DNA of 64,000 nt from Octopus vulgaris (GCA_951406725.2 OX597824.1:96162001-96226000), one strand, 5' to 3'. Positions 11,181-64,000 are shown, counted from the stretch's first letter. Notes: a model not told the origin generated them from the letters alone. A program made the numbers and translations.

Positions 11181-11372
11181 GTTTGTGGCTTACGTCACAG
11201 AGAAGCTATGACCTTTTCAACATAGATTTATTGACTTTCTTTCTCGAACGGCAGCTTATCGGTCGGGAGTGTGACGGAAAGACTCAATGTAAGCAAGAAA
11301 CGATGTCGAGTTAATAAAAATAATAAGCGTATTCGGAATGATAGAAAACAGATAATCAAAGTAGAGAAATCA

Positions 11373-12246
<874 letters not shown>

Positions 12247-12328
12247 ATGGGTGCCAAAGTTTCTAGGACAGATTTTGAGTGGTCTTACACCCAAGAACCA
12301 CATGCTTCACGGAGAAAAGCAATCATGG
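12247..12328 (+). CDS. DEGS1: Sphingolipid delta(4)-desaturase (DEGS1/DEGS2 family) coding exon 1
   Basis: [27 protein letters not shown], the DES N-terminal domain with a Gly2 myristoylation site; donor G|GTAAGG; 82 nt. Missed by the ORF track. Probably co-orthologous to vertebrate DEGS1 and DEGS2. Confidence 0.96.
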
Positions 12329-13844
12329 GTAAGGAAATATATCTGATTACATTATATTTCTCTTAATAAAAAAAAAGCCAAATGGTTCCTCCATCTTCTT
12401 TGATGCCCAGACAATGCCAGTCGGATGCTGTTCCTGCTTTTATTTCCTCTCTATCACAAATGACCCCCGCAAAATCCCTACCAGTTGCTCGATTTAATTC
12501 TTTTCTTTCTTAATTGCTTTACCTGTCCTTTCTAAATTAAACCCTGTTATCCCAGGGTCATTAAGAAATCTGTTGTTCATACACGTTTCATCTTTGTTCT
12601 ATTTTTCCGTTTATGGTCGGAGGCTGTTTCCTTCATCTTATTTCTATTCGTTGTCTTTGTATAAATTTTTTTTTCGCTTATGGATTTCTTTTTCTTTTTC
12701 CTTTCCTGATAGAGGATTGATCGATCGTTTAAAAAGTATAATTCTAACTCTTTTTCAAAGTACATATGTTACCATGCATGTGTGTGTGTGCGTATGTATG
12801 TAGGGTGGATATTTGCCGTTTATTGCATTTTGTGGAATGTGCCTGTGGAGTGGCTATGTATGTATATGTGTATGTATGTGTGTGTGTGTGTGTGTGTATA
12901 ACTGTTTTATGATCGTGTGTGTGTGTGCACACACACGTCACCTTGTGTAGTTGTCACATTACTGGCGATAGATTTAAGCTATGAAGAAACTAACTGTAGA
13001 TGAAATCCATTTCGTATAATTCCGTTAAATCGGATCTAATCCAGCTAATACAATCTTCATGGAAGTGAAAAAAAATTCTTTTAACTAAAATCCAATTATA
13101 GATTCAATTCTAAAAGTTTAAGATGCTTAATTAAACTTCTAAAGGAGAACTTTATTTCGTCTGTGACTGTAATTGCGGTGGAATTTCGGAATGAACACCC
13201 ACCCCCCCGTTACTTTTTTCCTCACGAAAATTCCTGTGGCTTCCTATATGTGATACATCGGGGATGCTGTTCTCAAACTTTGTGCTTCGAGGTACGCAGC
13301 CGGCCGTGACTTTTATTATTAACGTTTGACTTTTACTTGTTTCATGTAGAAGCACCGCCTTGAACGAATTAGTCAAACGAATTAAAATTAAAAATTTTTT
13401 ATTTTTTTATTTTTTTACATATTCGTAATCTCCGACATCTAAATCGTAGGAATTCCGAAAATCCTTTTTTTCTTTAAATGCATTTTTCCAGGAGACCTGC
13501 CGAAGGTGCCACGCACTGGGACCGAAGCCTGGAATCGTGGTTGGAGAACAAAACTTAGTCACATCTGCGCTTTTCTCTCGCTCTCTCTCTCTCTTTTTTT
13601 AAAATCTTTTCTAAATTATGTTTTAAACAGTTGAAACGACTAATGACTAGTGAAAAGGGAATTGGCACTTTTCATTTTCTGCAGACTGTCTACGGTTCCT
13701 CTTTGAGTTCTGGTTAGATCCCCTTCACTTACTTTAATGTGTCTGACCTTTTCATTTAGGACTATAAAATTTGATTTGAATACGGTATACAAGGAGCCGA
13801 TAGTTGAGGCTACAAGTTTTACACTTGTCATCGGTGAAGTAGCC

Positions 13845-17464: not shown

Positions 17465-17890
17465 TCATTGTTTAACGTCAGCTTTCCATGCTAGCATTTG
17501 TTGGACAATTTGAGGACTGGTGGCACGTAAAAAGCACCATTCTAGCGTGATTGTTACCACCGTTGCCTTACTGGCACTTGTGCTGGTAGCACGTGAAAAA
17601 ACATTCAAGCGAGGTTGTTGCCAGTGCCGCTGGACTGGCTCCTGTGCAAGTGGCACATAAAAAACACCATTTGAGCGTGACCGTTGCCAGTACTGCCTGA
17701 CTAGCCCTCGTGCCGGTGGCACATAAAAGCACCCACTACACTCTTGGAGTGGTTGGCATTAGGAAGAGCATCCAGCTGTAGAAACTCTGCCAGATTAGAT
17801 TGGAGCCTGGTGCAGCCATCTGGTTCGCCAGTCGTCAGTCAAATCATCCAACCTATGCTAGCATGCAAAGCAGACGTTAAACGATAATGA
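17465..17890 (+). mobile_element. Family C retroposon with internal subrepeats and an inverted 3'-end fragment at its 5' side
   Basis: Repeated GTGGCACRTAAAAAGCACC units, family C 3' end and (GAT)n tail, embedded in (TA)n. Confidence 0.7.
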
Positions 17891-18016
17891 TATATATATA
17901 TATATATATATATTTAATATTAATCTTAGGGAAGTTATTTTTGAGTCCACAGGGGATAGAAGTTCAATTTAGTGGTACTAAAATGAATTACTCACTGTCT
18001 TATACACATATAAATT

Positions 18017-18451
18017 GATAGGTTTAAGAGACAGAATCACCCTCAAGCAACTCAATCGTTATTGAACGACATTATCCACAATAGGTACAAATAGCACTAA
18101 ATATTAAAATTATCAGAATTAACACCTACAATTCTTATTCTAAATCATGTACTTTACATTATATATACTACGCACGTTTCATGACAACATATTCCTCGAT
18201 ATTGCCCTAAATAGAGGTCTTGAAATACAATACAATATTAAAATAATATGGTATTTCAAGACCTCTATTTCAGCATTATCAAGGAATATGTTGTCATGAA
18301 ACGTGCGTAGTATATATAATGTAAAGTACATGATTTAGAATAAGAATTGTAGGTGTTAATTTTGATAATTTTAATATTTAGTCCTATTTGTACCTATCGT
18401 GTATAATGACGATTGAGTTGCTTGAGGGTGATTCTGTCTCTTAAACCTATC
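18017..18451. mobile_element. Long foldback element (arms about 200 bp) beside (TA)n
   Basis: GATAGGTTTAAGAGACAGAATCACCCTCAAGC... versus ...GCTTGAGGGTGATTCTGTCTCTTAAACCTATC, short central spacer. Contains GAAACGTGCGTA and its complement. Confidence 0.85.
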
Positions 18452-18463
18452 TATCTATCTTTA

Positions 18464-18504
<41 letters not shown>

Positions 18505-18658
18505 ACAGCTAATTAAACACACAGGCAGCCTGTAACTTGTTTGATAAGTGCCAATGCATGATGACACTTATCAAACTTGTTACAGGCTGAAGGTCTGTGT
18601 GTTTATATAGATGTTGATAAATAAATATCTATCTATCTCTCTCATTCTCTCCATATAC

Positions 18659-24775: not shown

Positions 24776-25122
24776 GTTAGTTAGTTAGTTAGTTAATTTG
24801 GCTCAAAAGCAAATAGCAAGGCCATGTAGGGTGACATGGAGTTAAGTACAGGGTGGTGTTCATGTAAAGAGTTCAGGCCACTTGAGGTCCAGGGAGGCTT
24901 TGAACAAAGCGGTCGTCGGCATCTTCACCATCTCGTCTGGCAGCTTGTTCCACGGATCCGCAACCCGGACGGAGAAAGCTCCTCTCCTTCGATTGAGATG
25001 AAATCGTCGCAGGTAGAGCTTTTCGGAATGACCCCGCAGCCGACACTCCGGAGCAGGAGTGAAGAACAGCTCTTTCGAGAGGTTACACTTCCCGCTTATG
25101 ATGTTGTGGGCGAGAATGAGGA
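24776..25122 (-). mobile_element. CR1-clade LINE 3' fragment
   Basis: RLRGHSEKL...RRGAFSVRVADPWNKLP...LFKASLD is the CR1 ORF2 C-terminal signature; (AACT)n tail at 24776-24796. Confidence 0.9.
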
Positions 25123-25210
25123 ATTGGAAAGGAGTATAATGGAATATCCACAGTGTTTTACCTACCACACCACTGACGTGCCACTAATTAAAAAAATTTT
25201 TTTTTTGTTT

Positions 25211-51172: not shown

Positions 51173-51943
51173 AATTAATTTTGAAAATAATGATTTATTT
51201 GTTATTATTAAGCTGGTGTTTAGAATATGAATTAATAGGAAATTTTGAAGGAAGGTTTTAATTTACATCATTTTAAAGCAAGAGAACCAAAACTATTGAA
51301 AAGGTTGCAAAACGCAACGAAAATTTTAGGAAAATAAAAATAAGAAATAAGTGGAAATTTTACCTGTGAGTGTGTTACATTATACGATACAAAAAGAAAA
51401 TGACCCTCCCCCGACAGAACAGAAGTTTATATCAGAACGAGATGCAGTCTTAGGCATTTTAGTATCAAAAGAGCTAAAAAACATTAGAATCTTAAAATGT
51501 AGCCTCTGCAGTCAATAAGCAAGATTAGTAGATGACATGATGACGTGATGACATCAGTGCTGGCGAGTCTAGTATCGATCAAAACTGAATCCATTAACCA
51601 ACATTAATAGTTAGGTCAATATATCCTCTGGACAGTAGTACAAGGCAGCATTATTTGATATGTGTGTGTTCAGAAACTTGCGGGATAAGTAATTTAATTG
51701 ACTAAACACTCCCTACAAATTTGCGGCTTTATGTTTGTGCAACAGATCAAAGTGAATCTAAATTATTCATTAGGGATGAAAGGTAAGTCGCACAAACGTT
51801 ACAGCAAAATATTGATAGAAATTCATCAATGTAAATATTAGTCATCTGAAATCAACCAAGTCTTATATTATATATCTTGGTAACTGTCTCAGTTTTTATT
51901 TCAGACATGTCGTCACATGTACGTATGTGTATGTGTATGTATG

Positions 51944-52013
<70 letters not shown>

Positions 52014-52042
52014 CATGTATGTATGTGTGTGTGTATATATAT

Positions 52043-52317
52043 AAATTAAAATAAGCAACAAGGATATCCAGAGGTAATGCAGTATGATAGTTTCATGCAA
52101 CTCCATTTAATTGAACAATGCAATCATTACATCAGTTTAAAATTAGTATACTAATGTGTCCATCTGTTCTAATTTAATTAAATTGTATGCCTTTATGCAG
52201 CTGAAGATTGCTCTACATTTTAAATTGATGTAATAATTGCATTGTTCAATTAAATGGAGTTGCATGAAACGATCGTACTGCATTACCTCTGGATATCCTT
52301 GTTGCTTATTTTGATTT
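52043..52317. mobile_element. Foldback element (arms about 100 bp) containing a hammerhead motif; Penelope-like inverted terminus
   Basis: AAAATAAGCAACAAGGATATCCAGAGGTAATGCAGTA... versus ...TACTGCATTACCTCTGGATATCCTTGTTGCTTATTTT; adjacent to long (TA)n. Confidence 0.85.
52195..52283 (+). ncRNA. Type I hammerhead ribozyme motif (Penelope-associated), long stem II
   Basis: AUGCAG-CUGAAGA-[imperfect stem II]-GAA-ACGAUCGU-A^-CUGCAU: perfect 6-bp stem I, palindromic stem III, GUA cleavage triplet. Confidence 0.75.
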
Positions 52318-52411
52318 TAATCACCTTACTTTGAAATTGTATGGATAATACCATACTAAATTCTGGTGCCTCAACTTAAGTACCATATTCATCTGAATCT
52401 ATCTATCTATC

Positions 52412-52448
<37 letters not shown>

Positions 52449-52535
52449 AATCCAAACAAGAAAACACAAAAAAACACAGCAACGTGAGGATGTGGAACAA
52501 ATAAAGTATTATTGGACGCTCAGGAAAGAAGGAGG

Positions 52536-52570
52536 GTTTGACGTTTCGAGCGGAGCTCTTCGTCGGAAAC
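52536..52570 (-). ncRNA. Minimal type I hammerhead ribozyme motif (U4C core variant)
   Basis: GUUU-CCGACGA-A-GAGC-UCC-GCUC-GAAA-C-GUC^-AAAC: all three stems pair; loopless palindromic ACGU stem III. Confidence 0.7.
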
Positions 52571-52744
52571 AAAGGAGAAGGAAAGATATATATATATATA
52601 TATATAAATTAGTAATGCAATACTCTAGTATTGCATTACTAATTTATTGAAACTTCTTCACCGTTCTCGTGCTGTTAGCGTTTCGGCGTTTCAGTCGAGT
52701 GTAATGGCATTAATGTGGTAACACCTGAAATGTTGTTGTGGTAT

Positions 52745-52824
52745 ATGTTTGGCTGATGAAGATAGATCAAGTTTATGGGTGCAGACATATCTTGAAAATT
52801 CTGAAACCTGCGCAGGTCCCACAT
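52745..52824 (+). ncRNA. Type I hammerhead ribozyme motif, long stem II
   Basis: AUGUUUGG-CUGAUGA-AGA..UCAAG..UAUG/CAUA..CUUGA..UCU-GAA-ACCUGCGCAGGU-C^-CCACAU; 12-nt palindromic stem III, GUC triplet. Confidence 0.7.
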
Positions 52825-53587
52825 TATCCTTTTCCAGGTATTTCATCTTTCAGATGTTCTCCCTGGAGGTAAGACAATTTTTTCTAGTTTGTTGCACACA
52901 TGCATTTTTGCTAGTACATACGCGGTGAAGCTATACATTAGCGTCGTATTATTACGTTCGCTATTTCCAGTAAATATCGGTACTTCGTTGCGCTATATAT
53001 TTACTTCTTTGTATGTATATATATATATATATATATATGCATATGTATATTCTTTTATTTGTTTCAGTCATTTGACTGCGGCCATGCTGGAACACTGCCT
53101 TAAAGGGTTTTTAGTTAAAGAAATTGACCCCAGGAATTATTCTTTGTAAGCCTAGTACTTATTCTATTGGTCTCTGTTGCCAAACTGCTAAGTTACAGGG
53201 ACATAAACACACCAGCAATGGGTGTCATGCGATGGTGGGGGAACAAACACAGACACAAAGACACACATAAATACACACACACACACACACGCATATATAC
53301 AACGAGCTTCTTTCAGTTTCCTTCTGCCAAATTCACTCATAAGGCTTTGTTGGCCCTGTGTTTCTTTCAATTATTTAAAATATAACAAAGAATTTAGTAA
53401 AATAACTTAGTTATCATTAAGTTAGTGTTAGGAACATAAATTGTGACTAAAGTTTGGTGGAAGATTTTAATTAAAAACTTATGAAAACAAGACATTTGTA
53501 CTACAGAGCCAGGGTCGGTTTCAGCCGGGTTGGTAACAAAAGGGTTAATACCATACCAAATTACATCAAAATGGAAACAGATTCCCT

Positions 53588-54082: not shown

Positions 54083-54463
54083 ATTACTCTTTTACTTGTT
54101 TCAGTCATTTGGAACACTGCCTTCAGTCAAGCAAATCGACCCTGGGACTTATTCTTTGTAAGCCCAGTACCTATTCTATCGGTCTCTTTTGCCGAACTGC
54201 TAAGTGACGGGGACGTAAACACACCAGCATCAGTTGTCAAGCAATGCTAGGGGGACAAACACAGACACACAAACACACATATATATATATACATATATAC
54301 GACAGGCTTCTTTCAGTTTCCGTCTACCAAATCCACTCACAAGGCATTGGTCGGCCCGGGGCTATAGCAGAAGACACTTGCCCAAGATGCCACGCAGTGG
54401 GACTGAACCCGGAACCATGTGTTTGGTTAGGAAGCTACTTACCACACAGCCACTCCTGCGCCT
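54083..54463 (-). mobile_element. CORE-type SINE family A
   Basis: Full length with a small deletion near the tail. Confidence 0.9.
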
Positions 54464-54583
54464 ATATATATATTGGAATAATTGCTATGAAGCATTGTGT
54501 CGAATATATTGTATAAAGGATCATGGGTAAGGCCAGAACAATGCAAAGTAAATAACATACTCCCATCATACTTCCAAGTCGGC

Positions 54584-55145
54584 TTGTGCTTCCTAAAGCT
54601 ACCACACTTTGACGACAGAACTACTGCAGCGATATAACACACAGTCCACAGGGAAGGACTTGACATACAGATAGTGCACACTGGCCCTTCCCTGAGAAAA
54701 CCTCTGTCCAAGAACAACACCTCTCACTACTCTGAGGAGTGCACATTGTCGATCTGCCCCATCAATGACCCTGAATTGTGCCAGAGGATCTATGTCGTAT
54801 ACGGGATCATCTGTGGCAAATGTGGCACATCCTACATTGGAAGCATGACAAGAAAACTGCATATATGCAATAAGGAACACCACCATGAAGAAATGCCAGA
54901 CCTGGGAATTCCCAGAGCACATCAAGGCAACACAGCAGAACAGGGGCAACCTCAGAATCTCTGAGGCCATCCCTATACATCAAAAGAAACCTAAGATCAA
55001 CAATAGAAGGGAGTTACAGGAAGCTAGCTGGTTGCTATAGCAACACCCTTCTGCACATGTCCACTCCACACACGCTCACACATATGCACATCAACAAAAT
55101 TCGTCAATTTCTTGAAAATGGAGTCACAACCCCAAAATATTGAAT
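54584..55145 (+). mobile_element. Penelope-like retroelement remnant (linker plus GIY-YIG endonuclease), disrupted
   Basis: LKLPHF...AI*HTVHREGLDIQIVHTGPSLRKPL...C..C....LCQRIYVVYGIICGKCGTSYIGSMTRKLHICNKEH, then after a frameshift LRISEAIPIHQKKPKINNRRE. One in-frame stop. Decayed hammerhead-like motif at about 55111-55143. Confidence 0.85.
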
Positions 55146-56247
55146 ACAAGGTAAGTCTACATTAATTCACATATTTGTTTTCTTGTGATATACTTTGCAT
55201 TGTTTTGGCCTTATTCACGATCCTTTATACAATGTATATATTTATATACATATATATATATATTATCATCATCGTTGAACGTCCGTTTTCCATGCTAGCA
55301 TGGGCTGGACGGTTCGACTGGGGTCTGGGAGACCAGGCGGCTGCACCAGGCTCCAGTCTGATCTGGCAGTGTTTCTACGGCTGGATGCCCTTCCTAACGC
55401 CAACCACTCCATGAGTGTAGCGGGTGCTTTTTACGTGCCACAGGAGGCTGGCAACAGCCATGATTAGTTGGTGCCACGATCTGTTGGGCAAGTGTCTTCT
55501 ACTATAGCCTCGGGTCGACCAAAGCCTTGTGAGGGAATTTGGTAGACAGAAACTGAAAGAAGCCCGTCATATGTATATATGTGTGTAGATGTTTGTGTGT
55601 CTGTGTTTGTTCCCCCAGCATCGCTTGACAACCGATGCTGGTGTGGTTACGTCACCGTAACTTAGCAGTTCAGCAAAGAGACCAATAGAATAAGTACTAG
55701 GCTTACAAAGTCCTGGGGTCGATTTGCTCGACTAAAGGCGGTGCTCCAGCAAGGCCACAGTCAAATGACTGAAACAAGTAAAAGAGTAAAAGAGTATATA
55801 TATATATATCCCCTGTGCTGATGGCACGTAAAAAGCACCCACTACACTCTTGGAGTGGTTGGCGTTAGGAAGGGCATCCAGCTGTAGAAACACTGCCAGA
55901 TCAGACTGGAGCCTGGTGCAACCTCCTGGGTTTCCAGACCCAGTTGAACTGTCCAACCCATGCTAGCATGGAAAACGGACGTTAAACGATGATGATGATG
56001 ATGATATATATATATATATATATATTCCTTCATACACCTGTTCTTCAAAATCATTTGACATTCTAGAAATAGCAACTAAATCTCCCTCAAATAATACAAA
56101 GTTGTTATAAAAAAAGCAACAACAACAAAAAAAAAAACACAGAAAGGTCATATTGGATAACAAGGTCCTAGATAGACTGCTTAAAGATAATCTCTCAAAA
56201 AATTTTTCTTTAAGACTGTGCTTAATCAGGTCAGCTTCGTTAACCTA

Positions 56248-62532: not shown

Positions 62533-62962
62533 GGAAGGTTATCTGCTTGGAAGGGCATCTGTCTGGAACAGTACCTGGCTGGAAGGGCATCTGGTTTGAA
62601 GGGCATCTGGTTTGAAGGGCATCTAGCTAGAAGGGCATCTAGCTGGAAGGGCATCTAGCTGGAAGGGCATCTAGCTAGAAGGGCATCTGGCTTGAAGGTC
62701 ATCTAACTGGAAGGGCATCTGGTTTGAAGGGCATCTGGTTTGAAGGGCATCTGGCTTGAAGGGCATCTGGCTGGAAGGGCACCCAGCTGGAAGGTCATCT
62801 GGCTTGAAGGGCATCTGGCTTGAAGGTCATCTAGCTGGAAGGTCATCTAGCTGGAAGGGCATCTGGCTTGAAGGTCATCTAGCTGAAAGGTCATCTAGCT
62901 GGAAGGGCATCTGGCTTGAAGGTCATCTGGCTTGAAGGGCATCCAACTGGAAGGTCATCCAG
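62533..62962 (+). repeat. 16-bp minisatellite GAAGG(G/T)CATCT(A/G)G(C/T)T(G/T/A), about 24-26 copies
   Basis: Direct tandem units without spacers; the unit equals the GGAAGGGCATCCAGCT motif of the local retroposons. Confidence 0.95.
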
Positions 62963-63649
62963 TCATAGAAACTCTGCCTCAGTAAATTCCATCTGACCGT
63001 TGCAAGCATGGACAAGCGGATGTTAAAACAATGAGGATTTTCTGTAGAAAGGACCGGTAAAGTACTGATTGGAATTGATTCCTCTCACTCTTTGAGAACC
63101 AGTTATGTCGCACTGCTGGGGGAGGGGCATGGGGAGTGCTACGTGCAGAGTCTCCTTTTCCCCAAGAAATAGAAGAGGGTCAAGTCAAAGGCTAACAACT
63201 TCTTTGTGTCTAACATGCAACATGAAACTACTCAAAGAAACCAGAGAACCTGACTTGTGTGACGGTGGGGATCAACGTACAAAAAAGAAATCCAATAAAT
63301 TTAATGATATATAAAAGTGCAAGGAAAGAGAATTACTAAAATTTACACCCTTCATTTGTTTTGCAAATTTGAGAAGATAGAATAGCAGGTGTTCTGTAAT
63401 CTAATCTGTAGAATGATCACCTAGCAGGCGAGATACACGGTTCTAATTTTGTCAATGAACTCTTTGTTATTTTTATTTATTTATTTTCTATCTTAACCCA
63501 TTAGTGTTTAAACTGGTCATATCCGGCCCCAAATATTCTATCTGTTTTATGTTCAGACTGACCAGATGATTTAACCTCTCATACCTACCCTACAATGTCA
63601 TTCTAGAAATATACAAACACACCATTGAAATATATATATATATATATAA

Positions 63650-64000
63650 AGGCACCAGCCAATCATGACTGATGCCAGTCCCCCCTGACTGGCTCCTGTG
63701 CCGGTAGCACTTAAAAAGCACCCTCCAAATGTGTTCATTGCCAGACCTGCCTTACTGGCTCTGGTGCCACGTAAAAAGCACCAACTGATCATGACTGATG
63801 CCAGTACCCCCTGACTGGCCCCTGTGCTGGTGGCACATAAAAAGCACCATCCGAACGTGATCATTGCCAGGCCCGCCTTACTGGCTCCTTTGACATAAAA
63901 AGCATGCACTACACTCTTGGAGTGGTTGGCATTAGGAAGGGCATCCAGCTGTAGAAACATTGCCAGACCAGATTGGAGCCTGGTGCAGCCACTGGCTCTC
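63650..64000 (+). mobile_element. Family C retroposon with subrepeats, truncated by the window end
   Basis: Four GCACRTAAAAAGCACC-type units, then GGTTGGCATTAGGAAGGGCATCCAGCTGTAGAAAC. Confidence 0.75.

Follow-up and report, generated by a model that had tools for sequence, protein, structure and literature searches.

Three unrelated hammerhead-bearing inserts in one TA microsatellite of Octopus vulgaris, likely the 3' ends of Penelope-like elements

Introduction

Penelope-like elements (PLEs) of the Hydra, Naiad, and Neptune clades are reported to prefer (TA)n targets; the preference is listed for 24 of the 25 Hydra families with hammerheads and for most other rows of the Hydra sheet (PMC8557442). 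The published layout of their insertions, given in the legend of Fig. 2 of the same source, combines an inverted 5'-truncated copy with a tail at one end, and the tail has been explained by two reverse transcription start sites downstream of the hammerhead ribozyme (PMC11167929). PLE hammerheads themselves are described as weak, dimer-dependent, or protein-assisted (PMC4209133, PMC11167929). Animal retrozymes without long terminal repeats (LTRs), tandem repeats whose expressed form is circular (PMC7229834), probably originate from PLE ends (bioRxiv 10.64898/2026.07.22.740005). PLE families have been reported in Octopus vulgaris, in a source whose available part does not mention ribozymes (PMC13282606). 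Here we analyze 64,000 nucleotides (nt) of the Octopus vulgaris genome (GCA_951406725.2 OX597824.1:96162001-96226000; hereafter the window), in which three type I hammerhead motifs, each in its own insert, cluster within one TA microsatellite. The inserts are likely the 3' ends of three separate multi-copy PLE families that inserted successively into this microsatellite.

Results

Three inserts, each with a hammerhead, between four TA tracts

The descriptor used for the search combines CUGANGA (relaxed: CNGANGA), stem II, GAAA, a Watson–Crick palindromic stem III, H, and stem I. It finds three type I hammerhead motifs with palindromic stem III at 51936–53050 and no others on either strand of the 64-kilobase (kb) window. 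The motifs span 52201–52277 on the plus strand (no. 1), 52566–52540 on the minus strand (no. 2), and 52753–52818 on the plus strand (no. 3), and the chance expectation is a mean of 0.01 motifs per window with a maximum of 1 (100 dinucleotide shuffles in 2-kb blocks). The core CUGANGA...GAAA...UH is exact in hammerheads 1 and 3. Because its core is CCGACGA (U4C), hammerhead 2 escapes the strict form of the descriptor and needs the relaxed one. The features of the cluster are as follows.

51936–52043, no strand: left (TA)n/(TATG)n microsatellite, holding the longest pure TA run of the window (54 nt, 51948–52001)
52043–52143, minus: insert 1, inverted, 5'-truncated copy of the 3' end of the element
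52147–52316, plus: insert 1, direct copy, 5'-truncated at 52147
52195–52283, plus: hammerhead 1 (Hydra-type by resemblance), with stem I 52195–52200/52278–52283, core CUGAAGA 52201–52207, U-U junction 52208/52265, a 58-nt stem II region, and stem III ACGAUCGU 52269–52276
52317 to about 52395, plus: insert 1, likely optional tail, about 80 nt, at one end only
52400–52444, no strand: (TCTA)n(TA)14 tract
52444–52585, minus: insert 2, a fragment of 142 nt whose family is the most abundant of the three, with bins of summed contig depth reaching 3.4 million
52536–52570, minus: hammerhead 2 (minimal PLE type), with core CCGACGA (U4C), one extra A, stem II GAGC/GCUC, stem III ACGU, and the predicted cut after 52540
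52586–52605, no strand: (TA)10 tract
52604–52647, no strand: perfect fold-back of 20 base pairs (bp) opening insert 3 (z −9.4)
52606–53012, plus: insert 3, fragment of about 405 nt of the least abundant of the three families
52744–52824, plus: hammerhead 3, with a bulged stem I, core CUGAUGA 52753–52759, a 43-nt stem II region 52760–52802, the 12-nt palindromic stem III ACCUGCGCAGGU 52806–52817, and the predicted cut after C52818 (triplet GUC)
53012–53050, no strand: right (TA)11 tract, followed by a high-copy interspersed repeat

The interspersed repeats flanking the cluster are presumably octopus short interspersed elements (SINEs). The three inserts match neither each other nor the rest of the window (blastn, E<0.01), apart from self-inversions and a single 31-nt match of insert 2 (E 0.007). 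The original prediction of three unrelated inserts between four (TA)n tracts, each with its own type I hammerhead and palindromic stem III, is thus borne out by the tract coordinates, by blastn, and by three motifs where 0.01 are expected. The prediction was also right about the stem III words and about the cut sites, which fall after 52277 and after 52818 at a distance of 541 nt. It had overlooked the inverted duplication of insert 1, the opening hairpin of insert 3, and the U4C change in hammerhead 2.

A few further candidates can be set aside. A coding role for the inserts is rejected, as they contain no informative frame, and a 12-nt likeness between inserts 1 and 3 is within chance. The viral contigs scanned contain no exact match to any of the three motifs; in metagenome contigs, the insert 2 motif has one match, which falls within a coding frame of bacterial type and is a chance occurrence.

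Each insert belongs to its own multi-copy family

Part of the stretch is contained in 20 of the 24 sequencing runs listed, from four organisms, and four runs were compared at a likeness of at least 80%. The TA tracts, including 52390–52453 and 52572–52617, were masked in this comparison, which makes bridging between inserts invisible there; the contig results refer to the 40 of 73 variants, 15 of 73 joints, and 24 of 1229 loose ends that were listed. All four runs hold contigs at this likeness (18371, 15511, 6005, and 2790). In run X1, the summed contig depth, which does not equal copy number, peaks at 3.3 million for insert 2, 1.6 million for insert 1, and 0.04–0.34 million for insert 3, and the ranking insert 2 > insert 1 > insert 3 recurs in every one of the four runs. 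Run X7, possibly an RNA run, shows a higher relative depth over insert 2, which is given no weight here. Every insert is a member of a multi-copy family of its own. The extremes of family depth lie about 10- to 50-fold apart in the DNA-type runs, which speaks against a single composite unit.

Insert 1 has the published PLE layout

Insert 1 shows the published PLE layout: an inverted, truncated copy is combined with a direct copy truncated at its 5' end and with an extension on one side only. Its inverted duplication (101 nt, 95% alike, 52043–52143 versus 52217–52317) covers the 3' half of hammerhead 1; in the inverted copy, the tail and the CUGA half of the core are missing, and the stem III word has two changes. 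Position 52089 is mostly C in the runs (0.68–0.80 of depth). In each of the runs X1, X3, and X10, 45–71 contigs carry other sequence upstream of 52147, and the direct copy is therefore 5'-truncated. At its other end, the segment between 52317 and about 52395 probably represents a tail that is optional, because the inverted arm stops, abutting the left TA tract, at the mirror position of 52317, and because 8 X7 contigs (among the 24 of 1229 loose ends listed) depart at 52316 into a TA/TACA repeat.

As a separate observation, the inverted repeat at 52043–52317 (101 bp) would, if transcribed, form long double-stranded RNA, a possible substrate for editing or small RNAs.

A second element with the same layout lies 1.5 kb away.

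54463–55263, plus: TA-flanked PLE remnant, with (TA)5, inverted arms of 54 nt (54504–54557/55184–55237), and (TA)7
54638–54964, plus: decayed GIY-YIG frame of the remnant (ESM Atlas 0.95)
near 55113–55146, plus: decayed hammerhead-like motif of the remnant, placed by eye, with a donor-like AAG/GTAAGT at 55151

A HMMER search with the GIY-YIG frame returns 107 relatives, including proteins of about 850 amino acids. Pfam families for reverse transcriptase and for a C-terminal GIY-YIG domain are both present in five of the seven relatives scanned (E<0.01), and by eye the motifs of the relatives resemble Nematis. With the frame itself, a word-index protein search is empty, and Pfam gives only sub-threshold zinc-finger matches. 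Since the remnant pairs the layout of insert 1 with a GIY-YIG piece, this layout goes with a PLE endonuclease in this genome. The motifs, the TA spacers, the unequal abundances of the families, and the anatomy of insert 1 are all direct observations.

Hammerheads 1 and 3

Hammerhead 1 is predicted to cut after A52277, at the permitted triplet GUA. It has a U after CUGAAGA and a U before GAAA, followed by UGC/GCA. A U-U stem II junction is present in 14 of 25 Hydra-clade families, by our own count from File S2 (PMC8557442), and hammerhead 1 shares this Hydra junction type, a typical trait taken from the File S2 table and not a formal definition. The U10.1–U11.1 mismatch has been reported in natural hammerheads, as the best tolerated mispair (PMC3088659). 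A subfamily carries A at 52209, and the complementary change at the mirror of 52264 is found in 0.28–0.50 of depth. The two changes, which are not phased, would together be a U-A to A-U swap and are support for, not proof of, covariation.

In family 3, the run letters at 52799 (1.00 of depth, four of four runs) and 52773 (0.54–0.78) turn two U-U mismatches of stem II into pairs; the family therefore keeps stem II, and the copy in the window has decayed. In addition, at least two stem III deletions (2 nt in three runs and 6 nt in one run), both of those among the 40 of 73 variants listed, preserve the palindrome. Judged from these family variants, the two long stem II regions of 58 and 43 nt look real at the family level.

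Two side observations concern insert 3. A 155-nt piece in X7 spans the loop of its fold-back with 3 differences, and one X7 contig of the same family (record 30) runs past 52628 without the hairpin. Because a deep contig crosses the loop and another continues upstream without it, the fold-back at 52604–52647 may be the sign of a derived subfamily that arose through snap-back of the cDNA. Downstream of hammerhead 3 lie a splice-donor-like GAG/GTAAGA at 52869 and an acceptor-like site at 52837–52838; the segment 52837–52970, with its donor at 52869, may hold the start of a retained PLE intron, like the donor at 55151.

Hammerhead 2

Hammerhead 2 fits the minimal PLE consensus of PMC4209133, with the extra base before 10.1, G10.1–C11.1, and a palindromic 15.2–16.2. 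Its U4C change reduces hammerhead activity in vitro (PMC3088659). The run contigs carry G>A at 52540 in 0.50–0.95 of depth and thus mostly read its triplet as GUU. Neither insert 2 nor insert 3 has an inverted 3' copy of the insert 1 kind.

Predicted folds

The local minimum-energy fold differs from the hammerhead fold in all three cases, with unremarkable z-scores (−1.06, −0.74, and +0.52). For hammerhead 1 (without the inverted arm) and hammerhead 3, the constrained hammerhead folds lie 4.6–6.7 kcal/mol above the free fold. According to the fold predictions, stem III of nos. 1 and 2 requires a dimer, and only hammerhead 3 is predicted to fold as a monomer (4 bp and a tetraloop).

Probable serial insertion of PLE ends into (TA)n

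All three inserts are flanked by TA at this locus, and the cut sites lie 118, 97, and 192 nt (nos. 1, 2, and 3) from the downstream TA tract, which places each hammerhead near a 3' end. PLE parentage and serial, TA-targeted insertion are the likely origin of this arrangement. The GIY-YIG endonuclease of each parent would nick (TA)n, and reverse transcriptase would begin about 40–190 nt downstream of the hammerhead and halt early, leaving only the hammerhead-bearing end. TA left on both sides of each insertion would renew the target. The hammerheads would likely serve tandem transcripts of the parents, acting as homodimers through the palindromic stem III, perhaps with the help of protein. A tandem pseudo-LTR arrangement is absent, and the single copies at the locus are as expected for truncated insertions. 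The original proposal, in which several families of PLE type target (TA)n and accumulate there, is supported. A Naiad identity of the inserts is rejected, as Naiads are described without canonical hammerheads (PMC8557442).

Across the window, TA tracts of five or more units number 27 and fall into 20 sites. Three insertions in one of these 20 sites have P 0.002–0.02 when these three are counted alone and P 0.02–0.15 when two further PLE-like remnants are included, the value varying with the pull of long or new tracts. A shared self-renewing target is enough to account for the crowding.

Several points weigh against this reading. Within the three fragments there is no open reading frame (ORF) with a telomerase-like reverse transcriptase and GIY-YIG, and no parent ORF is linked to them. 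None of nine short insert motifs occurs in the consensus files of PMC8557442, the octopus Hydra hammerhead listed there has a different sequence, and by eye the 3' ends of its three octopus Naiads and of Hydra-1_Obim show no resemblance to the inserts. Rfam at E<=10 gives 36 weak matches, none of them to a hammerhead family. The tail of insert 1 measures about 80 nt versus the published 30–40 nt, and the microsatellite end at 52316 is seen in one run (X7, 8 contigs). True covariation comes down to one unphased pair (52209/52264), and the palindrome-keeping deletions of family 3 come from 1–2 contigs per run; the palindrome would in any case survive 3 of 9 deletions of two bases and 1 of 5 of six bases. 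Truncation at the 5' end within a dispersed multi-copy family is seen for insert 1 and, in a single contig (X7 record 30), for insert 3; the 5' end of family 2 falls inside the masked 52572–52617, where truncation of insert 2 is out of sight. Finally, the crowding is only somewhat above a uniform draw (P 0.002–0.15, depending on the model), at a locus picked post hoc.

Alternative explanations

The same pile-up could have arisen with inserts 2 and/or 3 as complete short non-autonomous units, either retrozyme-like monomers or PLE-dependent SINE-like elements, mobilized in trans. We give this account a small chance. The lengths of 142 and about 405 nt fall within the 51–972 nt of animal retrozyme families, many of which are monomeric (bioRxiv 10.64898/2026.07.22.740005); the high-depth X7 contig spanning the hairpin loop of insert 3 means that this end may be common to many copies, and the 5' end of family 2 is hidden by masking. 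Against these points, head-to-tail hammerhead monomers are absent at the locus, and across the families none, and no joint that goes back, is found among the 15 of 73 joints listed. Moreover, insert 1 is truncated, and the X7 contig of family 3 continues past 52628 without the hairpin. The label retrozyme, as originally proposed for this locus, is not upheld, given the lack of tandem monomers.

It is very unlikely that the array transposes as a whole or was put together as one unit, be it as a composite element or from TA-filler circles recombined into the microsatellite. Its unrelated, non-nested modules split by microsatellite reproduce the layout of plant SaTar arrays, for which circle recombination into a microsatellite has been put forward as a speculative proposal (PMC5907723), and the crowding exceeds the uniform expectation. 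The unequal depths of the three families and the opposite directions of inserts 1 and 2 speak against a unit, SaTars are DNA transposons, and a TA-nicking PLE endonuclease accounts for the layout without recombination.

Slightly less probable still is a working two-ribozyme cassette, in which hammerheads 1 and 3 would cut a read-through plus-strand transcript and release a 541-nt RNA that may circularize. Both plus-strand cores are intact, with the permitted triplets GUA and GUC 541 nt apart, and the U10.1–U11.1 mismatch of hammerhead 1 is the best tolerated mispair (PMC3088659). However, transcription of the plus strand yields the inverted arm before hammerhead 1, and the arm is predicted to base-pair with the cleavage region of that hammerhead (P 0.9995), with a stem I probability of about 0; in the energy model, the hammerhead 1 fold is less stable than the free fold by 73.5 kcal/mol when the arm is present and by 6.0 kcal/mol without it. 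Stem III of hammerhead 1 needs a homodimer partner, and each of the three families is present once at the locus. The predicted stem III homodimers reach −10.0, −1.7, and −23.5 kcal/mol (nos. 1, 2, and 3), and mixed pairs −1.1 to −1.6 kcal/mol, just −1.2 kcal/mol where no. 1 is concerned. In addition, the window copy of hammerhead 3 has two stem II mismatches that its family does not share, and the cassette would lie about 15 kb past the last exon of a sphingolipid desaturase gene (plus strand, about 12.25 to 37.05 kb), with no host exon recognized near the cluster among 47 frames of at least 95 amino acids, although short exons could escape.

Excision of an RNA of about 540 nt by co-transcription, part of the original prediction, is thus not supported: the predicted arm would lock hammerhead 1, and by these energies the three palindromes cannot cross-dimerize. 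The three hammerheads probably do not work together. Hammerhead 1 is predicted to be silenced in cis by the inverted arm, the hammerheads at this locus are predicted to be passengers, hammerhead 2 lies on the opposite strand, carries U4C, and lacks a partner, and hammerhead 3 alone could cut by itself, weakly.

Chance matches in AT-rich repeat DNA are practically negligible as an explanation: there is no Rfam hammerhead match and the free folds differ from the hammerhead fold, but three motifs were found versus 0.01 expected per window, family letters repair stems, and the junctions match published PLE hammerhead types.

Other features of the window

A minus-strand frame starting near 11.8 kb is one that we take to be YY1-like. 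At 11370–12330, this minus-strand first coding exon and the start of the first exon of the desaturase gene on the plus strand stand head to head, about 400 nt apart. A fold-back element at 18002–18466 has two arms of about 230 nt (about 88–95% alike) and ends at a (TA)17 tract. Both arms contain GAAACGUGCGUA, which corresponds to a hammerhead 3' half with a near-palindromic stem III, and no CUGA half is found within 100 nt upstream of it. This element may be a fifth PLE-like remnant, built of two truncated ends. Next to it, a 154-nt imperfect palindrome (18483–18636) is flanked by two TA tracts. Tandem arrays are formed by a 16-nt unit at 62548–62959 (25.8 copies) and by 66-nt units at 17519–17728 and 63648–63889. 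The minus-strand frame at 24860–25183 has no Pfam match and presumably resembles the C-terminal end of ORF2 of a long interspersed element.

Discussion

The likely origin of the cluster in serial PLE insertion can be compared with four described systems. Hydra-clade PLEs (PMC8557442; Hydra-1_Obim, Penelope-n_HM) share with it the (TA)n preference, inverted 5'-truncated copies, a hammerhead about 100–300 nt from the 3' end, a U-U stem II junction with UGC/GCA adjoining, and a near-palindromic stem III of 8–12 nt. In this respect, hammerhead 1 fits the Hydra type well and hammerhead 3 loosely, as far as the motifs themselves tell. The inserts do not match Hydra-1_Obim in sequence. Further traits of the Hydra clade are an endonuclease without CCHH, a CxCX5C linker, and a DKT motif. 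Furthermore, the stem II regions of 58 and 43 nt stand against 12–26 nt in the 25 Hydra-clade families listed. The view that the long, A/U-rich stem II is atypical holds for length relative to the listed animal PLEs, although two spike-moss PLE-X entries, marked as deviating, have a stem II of about 50 nt (PMC8557442). As for composition, the A/U fractions of 0.74 (no. 1) and 0.67 (no. 3) compare with about 0.66 in the 2 kb around them, so that stem II is somewhat A/U-rich in hammerhead 1 alone.

Hammerhead 2 is close to the minimal hammerheads of metazoan PLE pseudo-LTRs (PMC4209133; Poseidon PAc, PMC11167929), with which it shares the short stem I, the extra base before 10.1, G-C at 10.1–11.1, and the ACGU stem III. 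These hammerheads are mostly single motifs left by truncated elements, and their activity is dimer-dependent, low, or protein-assisted. Hammerhead 2 departs from them in U4C and in a stem II of 4 bp versus 7–8 bp for Schistosoma. Animal non-LTR retrozymes (PMC7229834; bioRxiv 10.64898/2026.07.22.740005) are likewise short non-coding repeats with type I hammerheads, are derived from or related to PLE pseudo-LTRs, and include dispersed monomers. Unlike them, the locus has no tandem monomers, three unrelated sequences, and the layout of an inverted copy plus tail.

The finding suggests that PLE hammerheads are undercounted, as Rfam missed all three here; stems of 43–58 nt would also escape the published core search, because its spacer was set at 7–17 nt (PMC8557442). 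A broader set of propositions, taken jointly, is tentative and rather doubtful as a whole. This genome may contain large Hydra-like PLE hammerhead families with a conserved stem II of 40–60 nt, missed by standard descriptors and by Rfam; the stem III of one such family, at 6, 10, and 12 nt, might be a natural switch between dimer-only and monomer cleavage; and (TA)n might form self-renewing landing pads that gather unrelated ribozymes, with the inverted copy of an insertion silencing in cis. Families with thousands of copies are material for the open question of the role of PLE hammerheads, and there monomer versus dimer cleavage, the role of the long stem II, and silencing by the inverted copy are testable.

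At the level of the whole array, the closest counterparts are the SaTar arrays of guayule and rice (PMC5907723), which are also linear, with non-nested, unrelated elements split by microsatellite. SaTars are plant non-autonomous Mutator-like DNA transposons, whereas the modules here bear hammerheads and are likely retroelement ends in an animal. We found no description of PLE arrays of this kind in the literature searched, which lay outside subscription papers, Repbase, and Dfam. If serial insertion is true, PLEs that target TA assemble modular arrays in an animal genome, much like the SaTar DNA transposons of plants. The locus is an accumulation of elements of known kinds, for most of which established PLE biology is explanation enough, and its long stem II regions are mildly unusual.

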